A stretch of 64,000 nt of DNA from NCBI GenBank assembly GCA_964494385.1, contig CAZBSE010000004.1, positions 12,475 through 76,474 on the forward strand, given 5' to 3'. Both the position numbers and the translations under genes were made by a program. Of this stretch, positions 51,948 to 64,000 are shown piece after piece (within the stretch, counting starts at the first letter, position 1; every line of letters begins with the position of its first letter). This stretch comes from an uncultured Actinomycetota bacterium (GTDB taxonomy: Bacteria; Actinomycetota; Humimicrobiia; Humimicrobiales; Humimicrobiaceae). The notes beneath the pieces are model-generated. The model was not told the origin of the DNA. It worked only from the letters and a program-made list of their open reading frames with translations, and ran no database searches.

Positions 51948-52678
51948 GGCTTAAGTGCCCTTTCCATATTCTCCATATACAGATCAATAGTCTTTCCAAT
52001 ATCCTTTCCGGCAGTTATGGACCTTCCCGCAATTATAAAATCCGCTCCTGCCGATATTGCCTCAGAAGGGGTGCTTATTCTTTTCTGATCCCCGGCTGCG
52101 TCTCCGGCAAGCCTTATACCCGGAGTTGCGATATAAAAATCACTGCCGGCCGCCTTCCTTATCCTTTCCACCTCACGGGGTGAGCATACTATGCCGTCAA
52201 GCCCCGCCTCCCTGGAAACATTTATCAGGTTCAGGACCGAATCCATAAAGTTCCCTTTGAACCCCAGGACCTTAAGATCCTCATCATCCAGGCTTGTGAG
52301 AACGGTGACACCGAAAAGAAGGGGCCTTATTTTATTTTTCGACTGCCCATCCAGCACTTTCAGGGCTCCCTGCAGCATTGCCTTCCCTCCAAGAGTATGT
52401 ATGGTCACTATATCCACATCCAGCTTGCCTATGGCTCTTATTGCTCCGGCCACCGTATTGGGAATATCAAAAAGCTTTGCATCCAGCATCACCTTATAAC
52501 CAAAGCTCCTTACCGTATTTATCACTTCCGGGCCCACACTGTATATAAGCTCCAGGCCTATTTTTAAAGTTGAAACCCTGCCTGAAATTTTGCTGCATAA
52601 GCTTATGACATCCCTCCTGCTGCTGGTATCCAGGCATATAATCAGCCTGTCCCTTAAAGATAACTTTCTCTTTATCAA
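51944..52678 (-). CDS. pyrF: Orotidine 5'-phosphate decarboxylase
   Basis: LIICLDTSS...KVMLDAKLFDIPNTV motifs. Confidence 0.9.
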   Translation of the reverse strand: MIKRKLSLRDRLIICLDTSSRRDVISLCSKISGRVSTLKIGLELIYSVGPEVINTVRSFGYKVMLDAKLFDIPNTVAGAIRAIGKLDVDIVTIHTLGGKAMLQGALKVLDGQSKNKIRPLLFGVTVLTSLDDEDLKVLGFKGNFMDSVLNLINVSREAGLDGIVCSPREVERIRKAAGSDFYIATPGIRLAGDAAGDQKRISTPSEAISAGADFIIAGRSITAGKDIGKTIDLYMENMERALKP

Positions 52679-53640
52679 GTCCTGAGCCTTCCTATTACTT
52701 CACTTATGTTTTTAATCTTTTTCTCCTCCACATAACCATTAAGTCCTTCTATAATCTTTTTACCTATATCGTACTGTACAAAGTTAGCCGTACCGATTCC
52801 TACCGCACTGGCGCCAACCAGCATAAACTCCACGGCATCCTGCCAGCTGAAAATACCTCCCATCCCGATAAGGGGTAGAATTTTTTCCCTGGCCAGCGTA
52901 TAAACCTTTGCCAGCGCAATGGGCTTTACCGCCGGTCCTGACAGCCCGCCTAAAATATTGCCCAGTGCGGGTTTGAAGGTTTCTATATCCACTGCCATGC
53001 CCACTACGGTATTAATCAGCGATATGGCTTCAGCACCTCCTCTTTTTGCCGCATCAGCTGCCTGTATAAGATTGTGGTGGTTGGGACTCAGTTTGGCTAT
53101 AACCGGAATATTTATGGTACTGCATGCAGAGTTTACTATTCTTTCAACCTCATCGGGCATGGAACAGAAAGCCATTCCTCCCTTCTTGACGTTGGGGCAG
53201 GAAAGATTTAGTTCCACAGCCGTGATTCTATCCCTGATATCAACAGTTCTGGTCAGTATGGCCTTGAACTCTTCCGCATCTTCCCCGAATACACTTAAAA
53301 TAAGCCTTGCTTTTAATTCCTCGGCCCGGGGCAGATGATCACTGATAAATTTTTCTATTCCGTCATTCTGCAGACCGATTGAATTAAGCAGCCCGCAGGG
53401 AGTCTCGCATATCCTGGGCGCCGGATTTCCGCATCTTGATTTAAGTGAATAGCTTTTGGTAACCACTGCACCCAGCAAGGATACATCAAAAAACCGGTTG
53501 TGTTCCGTTCCGAAGCCAAAAGTGCCTGAACAGGCAATAACCGGATTATCCAGCCTTATCCTCCCCAGTCTTACCGATAGTGAGGAGCTGCTTTCCCTGT
53601 TATTTATCTCCTGTGGAAATAAACTATTCTGCTCAGTCAA
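52675..53640 (-). CDS. pyrD: Dihydroorotate dehydrogenase 1B, catalytic subunit
   Basis: IACSGTFGFG and the FMN-binding TIM barrel; paired with pyrK. Confidence 0.92.
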   Translation of the reverse strand: MTEQNSLFPQEINNRESSSSLSVRLGRIRLDNPVIACSGTFGFGTEHNRFFDVSLLGAVVTKSYSLKSRCGNPAPRICETPCGLLNSIGLQNDGIEKFISDHLPRAEELKARLILSVFGEDAEEFKAILTRTVDIRDRITAVELNLSCPNVKKGGMAFCSMPDEVERIVNSACSTINIPVIAKLSPNHHNLIQAADAAKRGGAEAISLINTVVGMAVDIETFKPALGNILGGLSGPAVKPIALAKVYTLAREKILPLIGMGGIFSWQDAVEFMLVGASAVGIGTANFVQYDIGKKIIEGLNGYVEEKKIKNISEVIGRLRT

Positions 53641-54421
53641 ATATTACCTCCTTAAGATCGAAAGCAGGACCGTCCTGGCATATTTTCATATAGGAAAATC
53701 CTTTTTTCCCTTTTCTTATCTTAACGGCACACCCTGCACAGACCCCGATCCCGCATGCCATTTTTTCCTCCAGAAGCACTGTCACTTTATTGTTTCTATT
53801 GCTGTAAATATCCTGCAGCGCTTTAAGCATGTTCACGGGCCCGCAGCAGTAAATATCATAACCTTCGAATGCCGCTGCATTGTCCCTTATATAATCCGTA
53901 ACCAATCCCTTCTCGCCGCAGGAGCCGTCTTCTGTAGATATGCTGTAATTTATCTTTAGCTCGATTAGATCCTTTTCCCACTTCAGGAAACTGTTATCCC
54001 TGAACCCCACCGCAAAAAACACATTCTTTTTCCTGCAGGCTGCAAGCCTGGCTATAAGGTTCAGGGGAGCTATGCCGATACCTCCTCCTATAAGCAGAAG
54101 GTCGTCTCCGTTCAGTTTTATTTCTTTTCCCAGAGGTCCCGCAAAATCAAGCATATCCCCTCTCTCCAGCCGGGACATGAAAACGGTACCGATACCCTTT
54201 AATTTATATAATATGGAAAAGACATTAAATTTTTCCTCTATATCAAAAATACTGAAAGGACGCCTGAGCAAAGGATCCATAACTCCTTCAGGCGCACATT
54301 TTACATTAATAAAATTGCCGGCCCCGGCATTCCTGCATATGTAAGGCGAAAAGATCTCCATCTTATAGAGATTGTCGCTGTATCTGTCATTTGAGAGTAT
54401 TTCGCCTTTTAATAATTTCAT
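53633..54421 (-). CDS. pyrK: Dihydroorotate dehydrogenase electron-transfer subunit
   Basis: FAD/NAD-binding fold plus the C-terminal 2Fe-2S cluster CGIGVCAGC. Confidence 0.9.
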   Translation of the reverse strand: MKLLKGEILSNDRYSDNLYKMEIFSPYICRNAGAGNFINVKCAPEGVMDPLLRRPFSIFDIEEKFNVFSILYKLKGIGTVFMSRLERGDMLDFAGPLGKEIKLNGDDLLLIGGGIGIAPLNLIARLAACRKKNVFFAVGFRDNSFLKWEKDLIELKINYSISTEDGSCGEKGLVTDYIRDNAAAFEGYDIYCCGPVNMLKALQDIYSNRNNKVTVLLEEKMACGIGVCAGCAVKIRKGKKGFSYMKICQDGPAFDLKEVIFD

Positions 54422-57400
54422 CAGTACTCCTGTATAGGTTTTACCTTGACTTTTGAGTTATATTTCATCTCCTGTATTCCCTGGACCAGAGCCGAAGCGC
54501 CTGATATGGTAGTAATCGATGGCACGTTCCTGAGAACCGCTGCGGTCCTTAAATAGTACCCGTCGCTCCTGGCAATCTTTCCCTCGGGAGTATTTATGAT
54601 CAGGTCAATTTCCCCGTTTTTTATCATATCCAGGACATTGGGTCTTCCTTCCCTTATTTTCATTACCTTATGGCACTTTATTCCCTTTTCTTCCAGTGCG
54701 TCTCCCGTTCCCCTGGTGGAAATTATATTAAAGCCCAGTTTTGATAATTTTCCGGCTATATCAATTATAACTTCCTTATCCCTGTCATGGACACTTATGA
54801 AAACCGAGCCCGAAGTTGGAAACACCTGATTGATCGAGATCTGTGTCTTGGCAAAAGCAATCCCGAAACTGCTGTCTATACCCATTACTTCACCCGTGGA
54901 TTTCATCTCCGGTCCCAGTATGGTATCCGCACCGGGGAACCTGTTAAAGGGCATTACTGCTTCTTTGATGCTGTAATAATCAAGCGATGTGGGATCAACT
55001 CTTTTAAAATCGATACTTTTAAGCTTCCTGCCGGTCATTACCAGAGCAGCGATCTTTGCCATAGGAACCTTTATGGATTTACTGACAAAAGGAATGGTCC
55101 TTGAAGCCCTGGGATTGGCTTCCAGAACATAAACGATGGAATCCTTTACTGCATACTGAACGTTCATAAGTCCTACCACCCCAAGTTCCTTTGCCATTTT
55201 ATAAGTGTAATCCCTGATTGTCTTTATTATTTTTTTATCCAGAGTGAAAGGCGGTATGACGCAGGCGCTGTCGCCCGAATGTATTCCCGCTTCCTCTATA
55301 TGCTCCATGATCCCGCCGATAAACAGTTCGTCGCCGTCATAGACGGCGTCAACATCTACTTCCACCGCGCTCTCCAGAAATTTATCAATAAGTATGGGCC
55401 TGTCATTTGACACCATTGCCGCATTTTTAACATAACTTATAAGGCTTTCTTCGGTATAGACTATGCTCATGGCTCTTCCTCCCAGTACATAAGAGGGCCT
55501 TACCAGGACCGGATAACCGATCCTTACGGCTATCTCTTTTGCTTTTTTAACATCCATAGCGGTTCCGTTTTCTGCCTGCGGGATGTTTAGCTTCTTGAGC
55601 ATGGAACCGAATCTTTTACGGTCCTCGGCCAGGTCGATACTGTCAGGCGATGTACCCAGGATATTCACTCCCGCTTTCTGCAGTTCCAGTGACAGCTTAA
55701 GCGGAGTCTGTCCGCCGAATTGCACTATTACTCCATGGGGTTTTTCGGCCTCCACAATATTCATAACATCTTCAAAAGTCAGCGGTTCAAAATACAGCCT
55801 ATCCGATGTATCGTAATCGGTGCTCACTGTCTCGGGATTGCAATTTACCATTATGGTCTCATAACCCGCGTCATGCAGGGCAAAAGAGGCATGTACGCAG
55901 CAGTAATCAAATTCTATTCCCTGTCCTATACGGTTGGGCCCGCTGCCAAGTATTATAATTTTTTCTTTTACGGCAGGCATGATCTCATCTTCGCTTTCAT
56001 AAGTGGAGTAATAATAGGGGGTATAGGCCTCAAACTCAGCGGCACAGGTATCTACCGTTTTAAAAGTGGCAATAACGCCCAGTTTTTTTCTTAAGTTCCT
56101 TATTTTACTCTCACTGCAGCCGCATAGGTAACCAAGCTGCATGTCCGAATAACCATATCTTTTGGCCTTGCAGAGAAGCTTTTGGGTCATATTTTTAACA
56201 TCGAGATCCTTAAATGTTTTTTCAAATTCCACCAGCTGTTTTATGTTGTTTAAAAACCAGGGGTCTATTTTAGTGTAGCTGTATATGTCCTCGACACTTC
56301 TGCCCAGCTCAAAGGCAAATTTTATATAAAATACCCTGTCCTGATTTGGTATGGAAAGCTTCTTTTCAAGCAGTTCCTCGATTATGCCGTCCTTTCCGTC
56401 CGCCCCCAGCCCGTAGCGGTCTATTTCCAGGGACCGTATCGATTTTTGAAGAGCTTCCTTAAAGGTCCTTCCGATGGCCATGGCTTCACCTACCGATTTC
56501 ATCCTGGTAGTCAGGCTTATATCTGTTCCGGGGAATTTTTCAAATGCCCATCTCGGAAACTTTACCACCACATAATCTATGGAGGGTTCGAAACAGGCAG
56601 GAGTCTTTTTGGTGATGTCATTGGGTATCTCGTCAAGAGTGTAGCCCACTGCCAGCTTGGTGGCAATTTTTGCAATTGGAAATCCCGTAGCCTTGGAAGC
56701 CAGGGCACTGCTTCTGGAAACCCTTGGATTCATCTCGATTACTGCCATCTTTCCATTTACCGGATTTATGGCAAACTGTATATTGGACCCCCCGGTCTCC
56801 ACCCCTATTTCCCTTATAATTGCCAGTGCGGCATTCCTCATATCCTGATATTCACGGTCGCTTAATGTCTGGGCAGGAGCCACGGTAATACTGTCCCCGG
56901 TATGAACTCCCATGGGGTCAAAGTTTTCAATGGAACATACGATTACCACATTGTCATTCTTGTCCCTCATAACTTCAAGCTCGTATTCCTTCCACCCCGC
57001 CACCGACTTTTCAACCAGCACTTCCGATATGGGGGAAAGATCCAGCCCCCTGGTCACAGTGTCGGTAAATTCGTCCTTGTTAAAGGCTACACCGCCTCCC
57101 AGGCCCCCCAGGGTAAAGCTTGGCCTTACCACCAGAGGAAATCTTAACCTTCGGCTTATCTCCAGAGCCTCTTTTAAGCTGCGGGCATAACCGCTTGGAG
57201 GCACATACAACCCTATATTTGCCATGGCTTTTTTAAATTTCTCCCTGTCTTCCGCCTTATTTATTGCCTCCACGTTTGCGCCTATAAGCTCTACGCCGTA
57301 TTTTGACAGGATCTTTTCTTTTCCCAGCATGACCGCAATGTTCAGTCCCGTCTGTCCTCCCAGGGTGGGCAGTATGGCATCCGGCCTTTCCCTGTCTATA

Positions 57401-57630
57401 ATTTTTGTAACAAATTCAACATTTAAGGGTTCGATATAGGTCTTGTCCGCAAATTCGGGGTCGGTCATAATAGTGGCTGGATTGCTGTTTACCAGAACCA
57501 CTTTATATCCTTCTTCTTTAAGGACCTTGCAGCCCTGGGTCCCGGAGTAATCAAACTCACAGGCCTGCCCTATTATTATGGGGCCCGAGCCTATAATCAT
57601 CACCTTTTTTATATCTTTCCTTTTGGGCAC
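54421..57630 (-). CDS. carB: Carbamoyl-phosphate synthase large subunit
   Basis: 1069 aa; duplicated ATP-grasp halves plus the MGS-like C-domain. Confidence 0.97.
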
Positions 57631-57634
57631 GCTA

Positions 57635-58753
57635 TTATGCTTCCGCTAACTTAAAATTATCAATATAGTTTTTAAATTTTTTAAATATATATCTGGAATC
57701 ATGGGGGCCCGGACCTGCTTCGGGGTGGTGCTGAACCGAAAGCGAGCCTATTTTGGGATATTCTATTCCCTCTATTGTCCCGTCATTTAAATTCAGGTGC
57801 GTTACTTTATATCCCGTAACCTTAACGGATTTAAGCGAATCAATATCCACTGAAAATCCGTGATTCTGCGTGGTCACTTCGACTTCACCTGTCTCTAAAT
57901 TTTTTACCGGATGATTCGCCCCGTGATGGCCGAATTTTAACTTATAGGTTTTTGCACCCAGGGCCAGTGCCAGCAGCTGATGTCCCAGACAGATTCCAAA
58001 TAAGGGCTTCTTTCCTATCAGCCTTTTTATGTTGGAAATGGCATAGTCTACTGCAGCAGGATCCCCCGGGCCGTTGGACAGAAGGATCCCGTCCGGATTT
58101 CCGGCCAGGACCTCGTCTGCGTCCGCAGCCGCAGGTACTACCCTTATCTTAAAGCCCGCATCAGACAGGCATCTTAGGATATTAAGCTTTACTCCGTAGT
58201 CATAAACTGCAACGGTACAGCTGCAGCCGCTTCTTCCCGGGTTAAAGGTATAGGGCTCCCTGCAGGTAACAAGATCCACAAGGTTTTTTCCCTCCATATC
58301 AGGGTAGCTTTTTAATTTTCCGGCCAGAATTTTTTTATTAAAAGTTTTAGTAGATATTATACCTTTCATGGCGCCTTTAACCCTTATATGCTTGGTAAGC
58401 TGCCTGGTATCAATTTCCGAAATTCCCATGATATTGTACTTTTTTAAGTACTGCTCCAGGCTGGACTCGGCTCTCCAGCTGCTGTAATATTCAAGATGTT
58501 CCCTTACAATAAATCCCTTTACCTGGACCTTTTCCGACTCTATGTCCTTACTGTTTATCCCATAGTTGCCTATCTGGGGATAGGTCATGGTAACAATCTG
58601 CTCGCAGTAAGAGGGGTCGGTCAGAATTTCCTGATAGCCGGTCATGGAAGTGTTAAAAACAACTTCCCCCATTATCTCGCCCCCGCAGCCGAAACTTTTG
58701 CCTTCAAACACTTTACCGTCTTCAAGTACCAATATCGCTTCCAACTCAATCAC
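57635..58753 (-). CDS. carA: Carbamoyl-phosphate synthase small (glutaminase) subunit
   Basis: Class I GATase triad (GICLGHQ...) and the CarA N-domain. Confidence 0.95.
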
Positions 58754-60041
58754 TCCTGTAAATTAATTTGCCCTTGCTTATGGTGCAGACCACCTTTCCC
58801 TTCAGCTTCTGACCTATAAAGGCGCTGTTTTTACTTTTTGATATGAAATCTTCCCTCTTTACTGTCTTTTCCGTACCGGTGTCTATAACCGCAATATCGG
58901 CCAGCCTACCCACCTCTATCTTTCCGGCGTCTATGCCCAGTATCTTTGCAGGTGAGGCTGTTATCAGCTTTATAAGTCCGGGAAGGCTCATTTTTCCCTC
59001 TCCGCATAATTTGCTAAAAGATGCGCTGAACAGTGTCTCCAGGCCGATGGTTCCGAATTCTGCCAGTCTGAAGGTGGTATTTTTTTCGGTATCAAGATGG
59101 GGGGCATGGTCGCTTGCCACCGCATCAATTACCCCCTCCTTTATGCCGCCTACCAGAGCCTGCCTGTCCTCCTCGCTCCTTATGGGAGGCTTGACCTTGA
59201 GGCTGGTGTTAAAGGAAGTAAGAAAGCTGTCATTGAAAAACAAATGGTGCGGGGTCACATCACAGGTTATATTGATCCCGTCCTTTTTGGCTTTCCTTAT
59301 CATCTCCACCCCGCTTTTTGTGCTGAGGTGGGTTATATGTATTTTTGCCCCGCTTCTTGCGGCAAGGATTATGTCCCTGGCTATCATAAGGTCATCTGCC
59401 AGAGGCGATATCCCTTCCAGCCCCAGCATCGAAGAATAACGTCCCTCATGCATCAGACCGTCTCCCGACATGAGGATATCTTCTTCATGCAGTATCAGGG
59501 GAAGACCGAACTGTTTAGAATATCTCATAATCTCATACATCAGCCTGCTGTCACCGACACATTTGCCGTCGTCTGAAAAACCTACCGCTCCCGCCTCGGC
59601 CAGCAGCCCCATTTCAGTTATCTCTTTTCCTTTGAGCCCCCTGGTCATGGCCGCAACAGGAAAAACCCTGCAGGCCGCATCAATTGATTTTTCCAGGACA
59701 TATTTTACCGTATGCTCGCTGTCTATGGCCGGTCTGGTATTGGGCATACAGGCAGCAGCGGTTACGCCTCCCTTTACCGCAGCCAGCGCTCCGCTTTCAA
59801 TGGTTTCCTTATCCTCAAATCCGGGGTCCCTCAGATGAACGTGCATGTCCACAAACCCCGGTGAAACCGACAGCCCTTCCGCATCGATTTTAACCGCAGT
59901 ACTGCCGGCCTTAATATTTTTGCCTATTTCAGTTACAATTCCGTCTTTTATGTAAATGTCGGAAGCAAATACACCGCCCTCTGCGGGATCGATTATTGTG
60001 CCTCCCTTTATTAATATATTTCTGTTTTCGGTCTTATCCAT
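58746..60041 (-). CDS. pyrC: Dihydroorotase
   Basis: DMHVHLRDPG metal-binding motif; amidohydrolase fold. Confidence 0.93.
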   Translation of the reverse strand: MDKTENRNILIKGGTIIDPAEGGVFASDIYIKDGIVTEIGKNIKAGSTAVKIDAEGLSVSPGFVDMHVHLRDPGFEDKETIESGALAAVKGGVTAAACMPNTRPAIDSEHTVKYVLEKSIDAACRVFPVAAMTRGLKGKEITEMGLLAEAGAVGFSDDGKCVGDSRLMYEIMRYSKQFGLPLILHEEDILMSGDGLMHEGRYSSMLGLEGISPLADDLMIARDIILAARSGAKIHITHLSTKSGVEMIRKAKKDGINITCDVTPHHLFFNDSFLTSFNTSLKVKPPIRSEEDRQALVGGIKEGVIDAVASDHAPHLDTEKNTTFRLAEFGTIGLETLFSASFSKLCGEGKMSLPGLIKLITASPAKILGIDAGKIEVGRLADIAVIDTGTEKTVKREDFISKSKNSAFIGQKLKGKVVCTISKGKLIYRSD

Positions 60042-60047
60042 ATAACA

Positions 60048-60968
60048 TCATCCCAGTATTAAATATAGTATGGCCATTCTTATGGCCACCCCGGAAGTTA
60101 CCTGCTTTTCAATCACGATTTTGTCCGCCAGTTTTCCTTTTACATCCATTACCTCATCGGTAATCTCTATCCCCCTGTTTACCGGTCCGGGGTGCATAAC
60201 TATCGAGCCGGACTTCATTCTTTTCAGCCTGTCCATATCAAGACCCAAAAACCGTTTATACTCCATCACCGATGGGTAAAATTTCCTGCTCTGCCTTTCA
60301 AACTGCATCCTTAACATATACAGGATATCGCAGTCTTCTATGACATCGTCAATGCAGTGCCTTACCTTAATTTCGGAAAAGTCCTCGGGTAAAAACATGG
60401 TGGGAGAAACTATAGTCACGTCCATGCCCATCTTTTTAAAAAGGGCAACATCCGATCTCGCCACCCTGCTGTCCAGAAAATCTCCCACAACGGCCGCTTT
60501 GAGCCCTTTTAATTTGCCGAATTCCTTATTTATGGTGTACAGATCCAGCAGTGCCTGGGTCGGGTGCCGGTTCTTTCCGTCCCCGGCGTTTATTACAGGG
60601 ATATCCGTCAGCCTGTCCATCATAACTGCTGTTCCGCTGTCAGGGTGCCTTATTATTACCAGATCGACCTTCATGGAAAGTATGGTCCTTAAAGTGTCTA
60701 TTATGGACTCACCTTTTTTCAGGCTGCTGTCCGGAGCCGAAAAATTAACAATGTCTGCGCTCAGCCTCTTGGCCGCTATCTCAAATGAAGTCCTGGTCCT
60801 GGTACTGGGCTCGAAAAAGAGATTAAATACGGTTTTACCCCTCAGGGTGGGGACCTTTTTTACCTTCCTTTTCGAAATCTCTCCGAAAGAATCTGCATTT
60901 GAGAGTATGAGCTCTATGTCCCCGGGCTCCAGGCTGTCTATATCCAGCAGGCTTTTATTGCTTAACAT
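60048..60968 (-). CDS. pyrB: Aspartate carbamoyltransferase catalytic subunit
   Basis: STRTR carbamoyl-phosphate-binding motif and HPxQ. Confidence 0.95.
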   Translation of the reverse strand: MLSNKSLLDIDSLEPGDIELILSNADSFGEISKRKVKKVPTLRGKTVFNLFFEPSTRTRTSFEIAAKRLSADIVNFSAPDSSLKKGESIIDTLRTILSMKVDLVIIRHPDSGTAVMMDRLTDIPVINAGDGKNRHPTQALLDLYTINKEFGKLKGLKAAVVGDFLDSRVARSDVALFKKMGMDVTIVSPTMFLPEDFSEIKVRHCIDDVIEDCDILYMLRMQFERQSRKFYPSVMEYKRFLGLDMDRLKRMKSGSIVMHPGPVNRGIEITDEVMDVKGKLADKIVIEKQVTSGVAIRMAILYLILG

Positions 60969-60970
60969 GG

Positions 60971-61507
60971 CTATTCCTTCTTTACCACTGTGACACTATC
61001 CGTACCGTCAACCTCTTTTAATTTTACCTCTACTGATTCACTGCGGGAGGTGGGCAGGTTCTTTCCTACATAATCGGCCCTTATGGGAAGTTCCCTGTGC
61101 CCCCTGTCTATTAAAACCACCAGCTGTATGCTTCTGGGCCTTCCGAAATCTATTATGGCATCCATGGCCGCCCTTACCGTTCTTCCGGTGTAGAGCACAT
61201 CGTCAACCAGGATCACGTTCTTTCCGCCTATATCAAAGGAGATATCGGTTATCTGGGCATCCCGCTTTATGCTCCTGCCTATATCGTCCCTGTAAAAGGT
61301 TATATCAAGCTTGCCCGCATCGACCCTGGCCCCTTCAAACTTTTCAATATTTGCGACTATCCTGTTTGCCAGAGGAACTCCCCTTTTCTGAAGACCTATG
61401 AAAACAAGGTTCCCGGGACCTTTGTTTCTCTCCAGGATCTCATGTGAGATCCTCTTGATTACCCTTTCCATGTCACTTTCGCTTAAAATGTTTGCTATTT
61501 CCGGCAT
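60971..61507 (-). CDS. pyrR: Bifunctional pyrimidine operon attenuation regulator / uracil phosphoribosyltransferase PyrR
   Basis: PRTase-type fold ([12 protein letters not shown]); first gene of the pyrR-B-C-carAB-K-D-F-E cluster. Confidence 0.92.
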
Positions 61508-61522
61508 AATCCCTCACTGCAT

Positions 61523-61554
61523 AAAAAAACCTCCTTACCATATAGGTAAGAAGG
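61523..61554 (-). terminator. pyr leader attenuator terminator (10-bp stem, UAUAU loop, U7)
   Basis: Minus-strand RNA CCUUCUUACC-UAUAU-GGUAAGGAGG followed by UUUUUUU, just 5' of the pyrR RBS/ATG. Confidence 0.65.
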
Positions 61555-61601
61555 TCAAAATATTACTTATATTGGAATATTTTATAAATATTTTTTTCAT
61601 T

Positions 61602-61632
61602 CCTTTTTAGTCTCTCCGGACTATTTTAAAGG
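61602..61632 (-). promoter_or_regulatory. PyrR-binding loop (anti-antiterminator hairpin) in the pyr leader
   Basis: Minus-strand RNA CCUUUAAAAUAGUCCGGAGAGACUAAAAAGG contains AGUCCGGAGAGACU, matching the conserved PyrR box ARUCCNGAGAGGYU with one mismatch. It sits in a stem-loop about 50 nt upstream of the terminator. Confidence 0.65.
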
Positions 61633-61714
61633 TTAAATTTATTTAATTTTATACTCTGTCCAACAGATACTATAGGAGATTACAGATAAAAAAACAAGCA
61701 GAAATTTTAAAAAA

Positions 61715-62074
61715 CTAGCCCATATTCTTTCTCAGCTGTCTGAGCTTGTAGTTTAAATCTCCCTTGCCTTCTTTTTTATAACCGCCGCCGCCGCCGTAAT
61801 TTCTATCTTTTGAACCGAAGTTTTCCCTGTTCTGGGTTCTGGCTTCATTAACCACAATAGTTCTTCCCTTGAACTCGCTCTGGTTCAGTTTTTCCATAGC
61901 TGCTTTTGCCTGTTCTTCGCTCTCCATCTCTATAAATCCGAAACCTCTTGATTTTCCGTCCATCCTGGTTATTACCTTGGAGTAAGTAACAGTTCCTTCC
62001 TGTGCAAACAGCTCTTCCAGCTCTTTATCGGTAGTGTCATAGTCCAGATTACCAACATACATTCTCTTATTCAC
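61715..62074 (-). CDS. RRM-type (RNP-1/RNP-2) RNA-binding protein with a Gly-rich C-terminal tail
   Basis: MYVGNL (RNP-2) and RGFGFIEM (RNP-1) motifs, then a GGGGGY tail; 119 aa. Confidence 0.8.
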   Translation of the reverse strand: MNKRMYVGNLDYDTTDKELEELFAQEGTVTYSKVITRMDGKSRGFGFIEMESEEQAKAAMEKLNQSEFKGRTIVVNEARTQNRENFGSKDRNYGGGGGYKKEGKGDLNYKLRQLRKNMG

Positions 62075-62408
62075 TTAAAAATACCTTTCCTTAAATTGCT
62101 TTACTATATATAAAAGAGAAGTAGAAACTATTATTTAAAATGTGAAACAAATGAATTAATAAGGAATGCAAAAAGAAGATTTAATTCTATTTATATTTAC
62201 ATACTATAATAAAAAATCCCTACTGCCCTGTTTTAAAATTAAAACTAACTAGATATTATATAATATATTTTCCATTTGTCCAAAGATTTTTTTAAAAGTA
62301 TTACTAAATTCCCCATCTGTTAGTTACATCACTTAATATCTATTTTTCTAAATTACCATCTAATTTTTCCTAATTTTAGAATATTATTCTCTGTATGCTG
62401 TGAATATA

Positions 62409-62793
62409 TTAGATATCTAATTTTAATTTTGGATTATTTTTTTTAAGGTATTTTTCAATAACAGATACAAATTCTTCTGCATCATCCATATTTTTTAACA
62501 ATTGAGTTTTAGAACTAGAGTAATCAGTTTGATACTCAAATCTATTCCTTTGTATTCTCAACTTATTATACTTAATAATCAAATTTTTAAAATCATTCCC
62601 AATAATCCTGCTTACAGCTTCAATTATTCCAACATGTTGAAATCTATTCCCGGGTCTATATCCCTGGGATCTTATAAGAGCGTTTGCCGCATGAAACATA
62701 GCATTATAAATAAATGTAAGAGCTGCTCCTTCATCTAAACTTATCAAACTTCTAGCTGTTTCTAAATCCTTCTTTGACCGTTTAATAAATTTT
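62409..62793 (-). CDS. HEPN-domain protein (HepT-like toxin partner of the upstream nucleotidyltransferase); start codon uncertain
   Basis: The HEPN helix pair (...KKDLETARSLISLDEG / AALTFIYNAMFHAANALIRSQGY), then RFQHVG...NRFEYQ. The track start (TTG at 62747) would cut helix 1. The frame is open up to 62856 with no ATG/GTG; an ATT at 62791-62793 is the first plausible initiator. It overlaps the 3' end of the MNT gene in another frame. Confidence 0.65.
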
Positions 62794-62832
62794 TGAATCT
62801 GGTCAAATCCAATTTTAGATTCCTTTTTAAGC

Positions 62833-63450
62833 TTACCTTCTGCTATTAAGTCTTCGTAATCCAGATTCTTCTCCCTTTAACATTATTTTCTTATCATCTA
62901 AAATACTTAAAATAAAACTATCCTTCTCTTTTACTCTTTTATACCATTCTTCTCCTGAATAATAAGTATAATTAATTTCCCTTGAAATTCTATGTTCTAA
63001 ATTATTTATTTTTTCAAGAAAGATATTCTCATTAAAATGTTCAATATTAATAATCAAGCATAAATCTATATCAGAAAAGGCACCCTCTTCACTTTTTGCA
63101 AATGAACCATATATAAAAGCTAAAACAATGCCGCCAACTTCACTAGTTATTTTTTGAAGACTTCCGTAAATTCCAATAGTTTTAAAAATTATAGATTTTA
63201 ATTCATTAAATAATGGATACTTTTTATTTATTGAGAAGTATTTTTGTTTGCCCCTATTAATTGATAAAAAAATGCCCTCTTTTTCAAGTTTCGACAGTTC
63301 CTTAGACAAATTACCCGGATCTTCCACAAGAATAACAGCTATTTCTCTTAAATACTTCTCATCATCAGGGTTCGTGAAAAAATGTAATAAAATTTTATTT
63401 CTTAACCTTGATTTGGAAATTTCTAAAAATTTAATCATTGTTGTAATCAC
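62833..63450 (-). CDS. Winged-helix DNA-binding domain fused to a minimal nucleotidyltransferase (MNT/MntA-like antitoxin partner)
   Basis: N-terminal wHTH-like segment (LRNKILLHFFTNPDDEKYLREIAVIL...NLSKELSKLEKEGIF), then the NT-fold motif GS(x9-13)D(I/V)D: IYGSFAKSEEGAFSDIDLCLI. The track start is a GTG at 63450; the ATG at 63436-63438 (MIKFLEIS...) is the more likely start. Confidence 0.75.
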   Translation of the reverse strand: MITTMIKFLEISKSRLRNKILLHFFTNPDDEKYLREIAVILVEDPGNLSKELSKLEKEGIFLSINRGKQKYFSINKKYPLFNELKSIIFKTIGIYGSLQKITSEVGGIVLAFIYGSFAKSEEGAFSDIDLCLIINIEHFNENIFLEKINNLEHRISREINYTYYSGEEWYKRVKEKDSFILSILDDKKIMLKGEESGLRRLNSRR

Positions 63451-63482
63451 CTACAACAATTGTAGTAGAACTTTACAACAAT
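63437..63482. promoter_or_regulatory. Putative operator: perfect 9-bp inverted repeat ATTGTTGTA-N6-TACAACAAT plus a third TACAACAAT half-site
   Basis: Read directly: attgttgta (63437-63445) atcacc tacaacaat (63452-63460) and tacaacaat again at 63474-63482. It overlaps the start codon region of the wHTH-MNT gene. Confidence 0.55.
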
Positions 63483-63592
63483 AGCAATGTTTTATTTTTT
63501 AACGAAAAGCTATAAATATAAGCAGACACTGCTGGCAGCTTATATTCTTTGCCTATTACATAACTTAGCTAATATTTAATATAGCAAGTATT

Positions 63593-64000
63593 TTAAGGTT
63601 CCACAACCTTGCCCATAAACAGGATGCTTCCGGTCCTGTCATCTTGGATTACAAAAAAGAAGGGCCTGTCCACTTTAAATTCCACTATTTCTTCTATCAT
63701 GGCAGCCGATTCCAGCATCTCAACCACGGTTGCCGCCGCAGCTTCGCTTCCTTCCTCGTTTACCTCGATTACAGTCTTGTGCAGCACCCTTGATATAAAT
63801 ATATCCGGTGCAATCCCGCTAAAATCGGCCCGGCTGCCGTCAAAGGCAATTCCCATACCCATTTCGGCAAGTACGCCGTTTAAAAGCTTGATCCCGTATT
63901 CCATCTTGTATCTGGGCATGGACACGTGGACCTGTTTTTTTGAAAATGACTCTAAAGTCCGGTTCCATGTATCCTCATCCAGTGAGTCTATCAAAGAATC
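63593..64000 (-). CDS. Serpin (serine protease inhibitor), C-terminal part; gene continues beyond the window end
   Basis: SMPRYKMEYGIKLLNGVLAEMGMGIAFDG...FISRVLHKTVIEVNEEGSEAAAATVVEMLESAAM...FKVDRPFFFVIQDDRTGSILFMGKVVEP: serpin strands s3A/s5A, the hinge EEGSEAAAAT of an inhibitory reactive-centre loop, and the C-terminal FxVDRPF motif. Confidence 0.85.
   Translation of the reverse strand, partial: DSLIDSLDEDTWNRTLESFSKKQVHVSMPRYKMEYGIKLLNGVLAEMGMGIAFDGSRADFSGIAPDIFISRVLHKTVIEVNEEGSEAAAATVVEMLESAAMIEEIVEFKVDRPFFFVIQDDRTGSILFMGKVVEP

Follow-up and report, generated by a model that had tools for sequence, protein, structure and literature searches.

The tail of the 64,000-nucleotide stretch of DNA analyzed here (the window), which comes from an uncultured member of the Actinomycetota, holds the 3′ part of a serpin gene next to a gene pair that resembles toxin-antitoxin (TA) modules, at the edge of the pyr operon. 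The locus raises the question of whether serpin and TA pair arrived together as one accessory region, as a preliminary description of the sequence had proposed, or whether they are different in kind. Our comparison with related loci points to a mosaic, a reading that we hold to be probable, in which a core serpin gene linked to genes for the sigma factor SigI and the anti-sigma factor RsgI is followed by a variable cassette of a minimal nucleotidyltransferase (MNT) and a HEPN gene and then by core control elements of a gene with an RRM domain.

All genes of the window tail lie on the minus strand. In the direction of transcription, the tail consists of the serpin C-terminus, a spacer, the MNT open reading frame (ORF), the HEPN ORF, a second spacer, and the RRM gene, after which come a PyrR-binding leader and then pyrR, pyrB, pyrC, carA, and carB. 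Three elements are the main subjects of what follows:

63593..64000, minus strand: 3′ third of the serpin gene, 135 codons plus stop (Pfam Serpin positions 237-370 of 370, E=1.9e-40)
62297..63493, minus strand: AT-rich MNT-HEPN cassette of ~1.2 kb, with approximate limits from filled and empty sites (L002, L011, L008, L012); GC content 0.268
61715..62074, minus strand: RRM-type RNA-binding protein gene (Pfam RRM_1, E=1.4e-21), syntenic in all relatives (L009 differs)

Here L008-L018 denote the loci of relatives in an Actinomycetota clade, and L002 is a metagenome contig of the window lineage itself.

Synteny and composition place the serpin in the core of its clade

The window ends inside the serpin gene, and an exact 40-mer DNA search of genome and metagenome contig collections gave no match. 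An exact-protein look-up with PyrR led to metagenome contigs that run past position 64000 and are 99.6-99.95% identical to the window over 58000-64000; a similar look-up with the RsgI protein, aimed at longer contigs of the window species, returned contigs of 1-2 kb only. The complete gene (L002 1698-2954; window position equals 66547 minus L002 position) encodes 418 amino acids and matches Pfam PF00079 over profile positions 2-370 of 370 (386.3 bits, E=2.1e-115). The 5′ part of the gene, its sigma-I-type promoter, and the sigI-rsgI pair therefore fall beyond the window end, at a projected ~64001-66310. The partial gene had been described as a serpin C-terminus with an intact inhibitory hinge, which the Pfam match and the translated EEGSEAAAAT of the fragment bear out, and recovery of the full gene shows a whole serpin domain and not a mere fragment.

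When the proteins of the window lineage were used in tblastn, the order sigI – rsgI – serpin – RRM – pyrR – pyrB was recovered in L008 and L010-L018. In other words, 10 further Actinomycetota genomes of species level keep the block, and the MNT/HEPN pair with which the serpin had been grouped is missing from nine of them. Among these syntenic relatives, the serpin is 62-77% identical to that of the window lineage, in parallel with pyrR (71-90%) and pyrB (68-91%). In L009, rsgI and serpin are adjacent and the downstream genes differ (a methyltransferase and an arg operon); therefore, the upstream module travels with the serpin. More than 120 full-length homologs are 59-77% identical to the serpin, the named ones all from metagenome-assembled genomes of Actinomycetota, and the species-representative genomes hold nine loci at 62-71% identity, all likewise Actinomycetota. 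The next-best serpins drop to 40-49% identity and belong to Cyanobacteria, Blastocatellia, Clostridia, Bacteroidota, and others. These figures come from a search with the full protein; the same search with the 135-residue fragment had returned short or truncated proteins only, probably owing to short contigs and candidate ranking.

A side observation of the homolog searches is that serpin C-terminus-only proteins of 99-186 amino acids (P0030, P0034, P0044, P0072, P0090) also occur on long contigs (62-388 kb), with the isolates Maledivibacter halophilus and Caldisalinibacter kiritimatiensis among their carriers. Serpin genes that have been split or have decayed may account for them.

The composition of the patch can be divided in a similar manner. 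The sharp drop noted earlier downstream of the RRM gene is real, with a GC content of 0.258 over 62075-63592 (0.210 in 62075-62408 and 0.275 in 63451-63592). AT-rich spacers are normal in this genome, since the 14 other window spacers longer than 80 bp have GC contents of 0.13-0.42. Unlike the spacers, the two genes within the patch do deviate, by a low GC content: the MNT gene (0.261) lies below all 54 other window genes (their minimum is 0.282), and the HEPN gene is at 0.289. As for the serpin, its description as noticeably more GC-rich holds in comparison with the patch or with the first 46 kb of the window and fails against the pyr operon, with which it is level (0.468 for the fragment 63593-64000 vs 0.456 for the adjacent 52001-62074). 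The window as a whole (0.381) contains a step from 0.365 over 1-46000 to 0.456 over 52001-62074. Six relatives gave serpin values of 0.41-0.43 and pyr-block values of 0.39-0.45, both above the upstream flanks. We note that the GC-richer block consists of the pyr operon, sigI, rsgI, and serpin, and that its contrast to the upstream flanks is similar in relatives. Codon-frequency correlation with the window genes (0.66 for the serpin and 0.75 for MNT, where the backbone genes average 0.87 and go down to 0.66) did not discriminate and was not used.

Because synteny is kept, identity tracks that of the pyr genes, and GC content equals that of the pyr block, the sequence comparison identifies the serpin as a conserved, syntenic, lineage-core gene of the clade and not a recent import. 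An ancient transfer into the ancestor of the clade is possible. The preliminary description had instead grouped the TA pair and the serpin as an accessory-looking region beside a housekeeping block; on this view the two would form one island of recent acquisition, and several features speak for such an island and against a core serpin: the patch is AT-rich; bacterial serpins are sparsely distributed, their occurrence in many prokaryotes having been called “enigmatic” (PMC8233489); the nearest serpins outside the clade are distant and spread over mixed phyla; and the ratio of serpin GC to whole-window GC is 1.24. This ratio would pass the criterion of 1.2 by which anomalous serpin genes are flagged in PMC8233489, a flag that the pyr operon would receive equally. 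The island is nevertheless hard to reconcile with a gene order that persists in 10 other species, nine of them without the pair, with serpin divergence in step with that of the neighboring genes, and with a serpin GC content equal to that of the pyr block both here and in relatives. Nor were the flanking marks found that the preliminary description had suggested looking for: there is no tRNA in the 64-kb window and no integrase in the flanks read, the cassette comprising two genes only, and no target duplication is convincing, as TTTTTTAA stands at both junctions but occurs four times in 1.3 kb. We regard a recent joint island as highly improbable and that reading as largely refuted; the accessory look of the TA pair itself, with its low GC content and its presence in some relatives only, stands.

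A SigI/RsgI pair is fixed upstream of the serpin

The sigma factor encoded upstream of the serpin scores 209.9 bits against NCBIfam TIGR02895, the sigma-I equivalog (cut-off 185), and is matched by ten other SigI models, each below its own cut-off. The rsgI gene starts 12 nt after sigI, and its product matches Pfam RsgI_N with 42.1 bits (cut-off 25). Hidden Markov models (HMMs) of the clade SigI and RsgI N-termini match in L008-L018 only, and an HMM search of 71 serpin loci from other phyla found neither protein. The clade RsgI forms a small family (~60 clusters at 90% identity, 223-243 amino acids). In an AlphaFold model built with 21 homologs, a small N-terminal beta domain is followed by a transmembrane helix (53-82), a disordered, Glu/Ala-rich linker (83-123) with a predicted local distance difference test (pLDDT) score below 50, and a confident C-terminal beta-sandwich of ~100 residues (126-227, pLDDT ~91); the linker varies in length among homologs.

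Beyond RsgI_N, no Pfam domain was matched in RsgI, an autoproteolytic SEAL/periplasmic domain was not detected, and the top 50 Foldseek hits of the model include no RsgI structure. The C-terminal beta-sandwich (model m8d334718b839) belongs to no Pfam family and shows a weak MATH/TRAF likeness. We did not adopt an assignment as SPOP MATH domain, the Foldseek similarity being weak (template-modeling score ~0.46, E ~3e-4). As modeled, the sandwich is possibly an uncharacterised sensor domain.

The pair shares with the systems of Bacilli and Clostridia (B. subtilis SigI-RsgI; C. thermocellum SigI1-8/RsgI1-9) the TIGR02895 match, the RsgI_N domain, the single transmembrane helix, and gene adjacency. 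An extracytoplasmic disordered region is a further likeness, to B. subtilis RsgI (PMC9732909). It differs from them in its host, since sigma-I has been called widespread in Bacilli and Clostridia (PMC10575876) and the host here is an actinomycetote; in its apparent target, a serpin in place of the usual cellulosome or cell-wall genes; and in its RsgI, which is short (224-229 amino acids), with an acidic linker and a small beta-sandwich. A full-text literature search for serpin and RsgI together returned solely cellulosome papers that list both separately, and the pairing is not described in them. As such, the module of sigma-I, RsgI, and serpin that is conserved in these Actinomycetota represents a new arrangement of known families.

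A sigma-I-type motif precedes every serpin of the clade

Between rsgI and serpin, every clade locus carries the motif ACCCCG-N18/19-CGTATATAT. In detail, it reads (T/C)ACCCCG, 18-19 variable bases, and CG(T/A)ATATAT, with a ribosome-binding site ~30 nt further on; the columns of the CC and CG dinucleotides show no variation, and the spacer sequence varies. The published Bacillales sigma-I consensus is ACCCCC-N2-AA-N15-CGAA-N4-T (PMC4711584, Table 1), and CGWA is the -10 box of the clostridial consensus (PMC10575876). The clade motif fits this Bacillales/clostridial consensus in both boxes and in the 19-nt distance. A relaxed regular expression run over twelve clade loci gave one match per locus, at the serpin motif, in nine of them; L002, L016, and L017 have variant boxes that it missed and that we identified by visual inspection. 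Elsewhere the relaxed pattern matched once, on the minus strand of L017, and not at all in the 64-kb window. A strict pattern applied to 89 loci matched clade loci only.

We therefore weighed the sigma-I assignment against another account of the motif, namely that ACCCC...CGTATATAT is a sigma-A promoter with TATATAT as its -10 element, or a repressor site, and that the serpin merely adjoins, or is co-transcribed with, sigI-rsgI. Several facts favor this account and count against sigma-I control. The -10 block does hold a TATA-rich sequence. The -10 box of the window lineage is CGTG and not CGTA (L002 1630-1665, projected ~64882-64917), which may mean a weakened promoter. Upstream of sigI, we found a conserved sigma-A-like TTTATA-N17-TATAAT and, in the clade loci, no sigma-I-type box (ACCCC...CGWA), unlike the autoregulated sigI operons of the literature. 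A terminator between rsgI and serpin is not evident, so that read-through could express the serpin as well. Finally, the assignment is made from motif match and conservation. The sigma-A or repressor account is at odds, however, with the exact fit of the invariant CC and CG dinucleotides and of the fixed 18-19 nt spacing to the published sigma-I consensus, with the lack of a TTGACA-like hexamer 16-18 nt upstream of TATATAT, and with a gene order to which 11 lineages keep strictly, L009 with its different downstream genes included. We consider it unlikely and retain the motif as a putative sigma-I promoter. In every other lineage, the -10 box is CGTA or CGAA.

The serpin is predicted to be a surface-anchored inhibitor

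The preliminary description had also called for a signal peptide check on the full protein. The N-terminus MKRCKLILILAVLAAVVMLSC reads as a signal peptide by its sequence pattern, and the lipobox MKRCKLILILAVLAAVVMLS followed by Cys21 agrees with the PROSITE PS51257-type pattern in the window protein. Eight of 14 serpin relatives also match this pattern, and Cys28 is nearly invariant. The other six relatives, whose lipobox is non-canonical (Q at -1), count against lipidation; on the pattern evidence, the serpin is probably anchored by lipid on the outer face of the membrane.

The part of the protein encoded in the window includes the reactive segment, and a hairpin follows its stop codon:

63695..63757, minus strand: hinge and reactive-center loop (from the translation), E365 (P17), EGSEAAAATVVEMLE, S381 (P1 by canonical count), A382, A, M
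63515..63546, minus strand: terminator-like hairpin 3′ of the serpin stop, stem 63533->63521 plus T-rich tail (inverted repeat I24)

In inhibitory serpins, the hinge has P15 Gly, P14 Ser or Thr, and small side chains from P12 to P9, so that the loop can enter sheet A, and the window serpin has all of these. Across 14 family members, E365, G367, S368, A370-372, E380, and A382 are invariant, and the hinge G367-S368-E369-A370-A371-A372-A373-T374 is invariant or nearly so. Within the loop, P2 (Glu380) and P1′ (Ala382) do not vary, P1 is Ser, Thr, or Ala, and P3 is variable.

Among solved structures, the best match is miropin of Tannerella forsythia (PDB 5ncs/5nct; E=8e-80, residues 55-417 aligned). 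The two proteins agree in hinge type, in the length of the reactive-center loop, and in having a signal of the lipoprotein type; miropin sits on the cell surface as a lipoprotein, and its loop contains several reactive sites (bioRxiv 10.1101/2025.09.05.674453). They differ in host, that of miropin being a diderm, host-associated member of the Bacteroidota, and in the reactive site: the main reactive bond of miropin, Lys368-Thr (P2-P1 of its authors), aligns with Glu380-Ser381 of the window serpin, where the family has an invariant Glu380 followed by Ser, Thr, or Ala381. A dedicated sigma/anti-sigma pair is not mentioned for miropin in the literature examined.

By analogy with its family, the serpin would inhibit serine proteases through loop insertion. 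Glu-Ser-Ala is an unusual set of reactive-center residues and could suit a non-inhibitory protein, for instance one with a binding or chaperone-like role. We judge this very unlikely, given a hinge G-S-E-A-A-A-A-T with small residues at P12-P9 that is invariant in the family and a loop as long as that of miropin, a proven inhibitor.

The serpin as the likely output of a transmembrane switch

Because the serpin is fixed directly downstream of sigI-rsgI and has a conserved sigma-I-type promoter, it is most likely, on sequence grounds, the output of the adjacent SigI/RsgI transmembrane switch. In the mechanism that we propose, RsgI would hold sigma-I at the membrane; an extracytoplasmic signal would lead to proteolysis or removal of RsgI and so free sigma-I; free sigma-I would transcribe the serpin from the sigma-I-type promoter; and the membrane-anchored serpin would trap serine proteases via its reactive-center loop. 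Release of sigma-I by proteolysis of RsgI is described for Bacillus and Clostridium in PMC10328401, PMC10556640, PMC9732909, and PMC12203970. The gene content, completeness, synteny, composition, and motif conservation underlying this proposal are observed directly; that sigma-I transcribes the serpin, that the serpin is exported, lipidated, and inhibitory, and what the cassette does, we infer.

A more specific and quite doubtful version takes the short RsgI for a protease sensor, in which an extracellular protease would cut the exposed, disordered linker, intramembrane proteolysis and sigma-I release would ensue, and the membrane-anchored serpin would be induced against that very protease. 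The Glu/Ala-rich linker stands where known RsgI proteins have an autoproteolytic domain, and the invariant Glu-Ser/Thr-Ala of the serpin loop resembles the linker in composition. If true, this would be a self-contained circuit for detecting and neutralizing protease attack, in a phylum where sigma-I was unexpected.

Little is understood of what serpins do in bacteria and of how they are regulated. The long-lasting link of this serpin to a sigma-I/anti-sigma pair and promoter suggests the hypothesis of an inhibitor made on demand upon an extracytoplasmic cue. It would also extend sigma-I/RsgI signaling to uncultured, low-GC Actinomycetota and to an output outside carbohydrate and cell-wall functions. 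The MNT-HEPN cassette and the AT-rich spacers are in themselves ordinary, and the parts of the locus belong to known families.

A variable MNT-HEPN cassette separates the serpin from the RRM gene

We compared the serpin-to-RRM spacer in 11 lineages. Of the twelve lineages compared overall, only the window lineage and L012 have the cassette, and it is absent from nine (L008, L010, L011, and L013-L018). In L008, L011, and L013-L018, the serpin 3′ region is joined straight to the RRM promoter, and the ~100 bp after the serpin stop, including the hairpin, also occur in the cassette-free L011. The spacer of L010 holds a 178-residue nitroreductase-like ORF (L010 6086-6622). The elements of the cassette are the following:

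63487->63459, minus strand: candidate cassette promoter TTGCTA-17-TACAAT (promoter scan, 9/12 matches)
63437-63482, minus strand: palindrome over the MNT start codon, arms TTGTTGTAA/TTACAACAA (inverted repeat I6, 23-nt arms, 78% complementary)
62833..63438, minus strand: winged helix-turn-helix (wHTH) plus MNT protein, 201 amino acids from ATG (205 from GTG 63450), with Polbeta and NTP_transf_2 domains
62409..62864, minus strand: HEPN protein, probably 151 amino acids from CTG 62864, AGGGAG 7 nt before the CTG; PDC-M05B

The MNT protein scores above the Pfam cut-offs for Polbeta (31.4 bits) and NTP_transf_2 (27.6 bits), its N-terminus shows weak ArsR-type and Csa3/CasR wHTH matches, and it matches the PADLOC profile PDC-M05A over its full length (E=3.7e-45). 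Its family has 1320 cluster representatives at E<=1e-10. The identical protein is present on 15 contigs from several samples, seen solely in this context. The candidate promoter overlaps the palindrome (63437..63487) in a sequence that is conserved in L012, and the palindrome is likely an operator for the N-terminal wHTH of the MNT protein, which would imply autoregulation.

The HEPN frame runs 39 codons upstream of its first ATG/GTG/TTG (62748-62864), and the profile PDC-M05B aligns over positions 2-145 of 146 with residues 4-149 of the extended translation (E=1.3e-17). Since this alignment begins at residue 4, the protein almost certainly starts near CTG 62864, as judged from the sequence, and not at the TTG 62747 chosen by gene callers (112 amino acids); public 112-residue HEPN gene calls appear to be shortened at the N-terminus. 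The CTG overlaps the MNT stop by 32 nt and is conserved in L012 together with its Shine-Dalgarno sequence. Two features weigh against our reading of the cassette, namely the absence of a canonical start codon for HEPN and that of a canonically placed Rx4-6H motif: the helix aligned to the solved HEPN structure 9xbd reads RNRFEY, with no His, and a stretch RPGNRFQH lies elsewhere. The Pfam HEPN score is marginal (22.7 bits, cut-off 22).

Type VII TA systems of the HepT/MntA type are likewise two-gene units of a nucleotidyltransferase and a HEPN protein with overlapping ORFs, and the cassette proteins are weakly similar to solved MNT and HEPN chains. The cassette differs from HepT/MntA in the N-terminal wHTH of its nucleotidyltransferase, in a score of 23.8 bits against NCBIfam MntA_antitoxin (cut-off 60), and in the HEPN helix, which reads RNRFEY where HepT-type RNases have Rx4-6H. 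Both profiles of PADLOC PDC-M05, which is a phage-defense candidate only, are matched near full length by the adjacent cassette genes. We interpret the cassette as an MNT-HEPN pair, TA-like or a defense candidate, and, because the MntA model is not passed and the HEPN helix lacks the His, not as a member of HepT/MntA. By family analogy, MNT would neutralize HEPN.

Whether the pair was inserted in two lineages or was ancestral at the site and deleted in most is more evenly balanced. Ancestry agrees with the fact that the cassettes of the window lineage and L012 share their site, orientation, and operator, and that identity between these two genomes is nearly as high for MNT (76%) and HEPN (79%) as for RRM (82%) and pyrB (83%). 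As deletion predicts, the closest relative, L008, lacks both the pair and the ~95-bp serpin terminator region common to the window lineage and L011. Yet the GC content of the cassette (0.26-0.29) is not shifted towards the 0.44-0.47 of its neighbors, nine lineages without the pair would require several losses, and in L011 the RRM promoter directly follows an intact terminator, no remnant of the pair being left. A different ORF occupies the spacer in L010, which marks the site as an indel hot spot. Ancestral presence with repeated deletion is thus a real possibility that falls somewhat short of an even chance. With insertion or with deletion, the MNT-HEPN pair is the movable or losable element of the locus and the serpin the stable one.

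Core control elements of the RRM gene and other neighbors

The patch had been described as AT-rich intergenic DNA of accessory character. Its low GC content is confirmed, and the accessory character does not extend to 62075-62296, which is core DNA because these ~220 bp, holding the RRM promoter and leader, are conserved in all lineages:

62255..62282, minus strand: sigma-A-type RRM promoter TGGACA-16-TATAAT (11/12 matches, the best promoter match of the region)
62075..62254, minus strand: conserved AT-rich RRM 5′ leader of ~175 nt (80% mean column identity in 10 species)

The promoter hexamers are invariant or nearly so in nine of 10 relatives, and the leader is conserved with or without the cassette. 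The leader may be cis-regulatory, perhaps autoregulatory. It contains an invariant block, GTAGGGATTTT, with possible pairing to TTTCTACT. We do not claim a structured RNA here, as RNAalifold gave one long-range helix (-7.3 kcal/mol, covariation -0.7) with two compensatory pairs. Rfam searches over 61700-63700, at gathering scores and at E<=1, returned nothing but the PyrR leader.

No conserved protease gene was found near the serpin module; upstream lie a THUMP-domain gene, a PIN protein, methyltransferases, and unknowns. The small, divergently transcribed THUMP-domain gene is the conserved neighbor upstream of sigI and forms the other edge of the conserved block:

L002 2-121; L008 2952-3455; L014 5845-6345; L017 5732-6235, minus strand: THUMP-domain gene, neighbor of sigI

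At the pyr end, the PyrR-binding attenuator upstream of pyrR (61521-61636, minus strand; Rfam RF00515, 56 bits vs a gathering score of 54) includes a terminator-like hairpin at 61556->61528.

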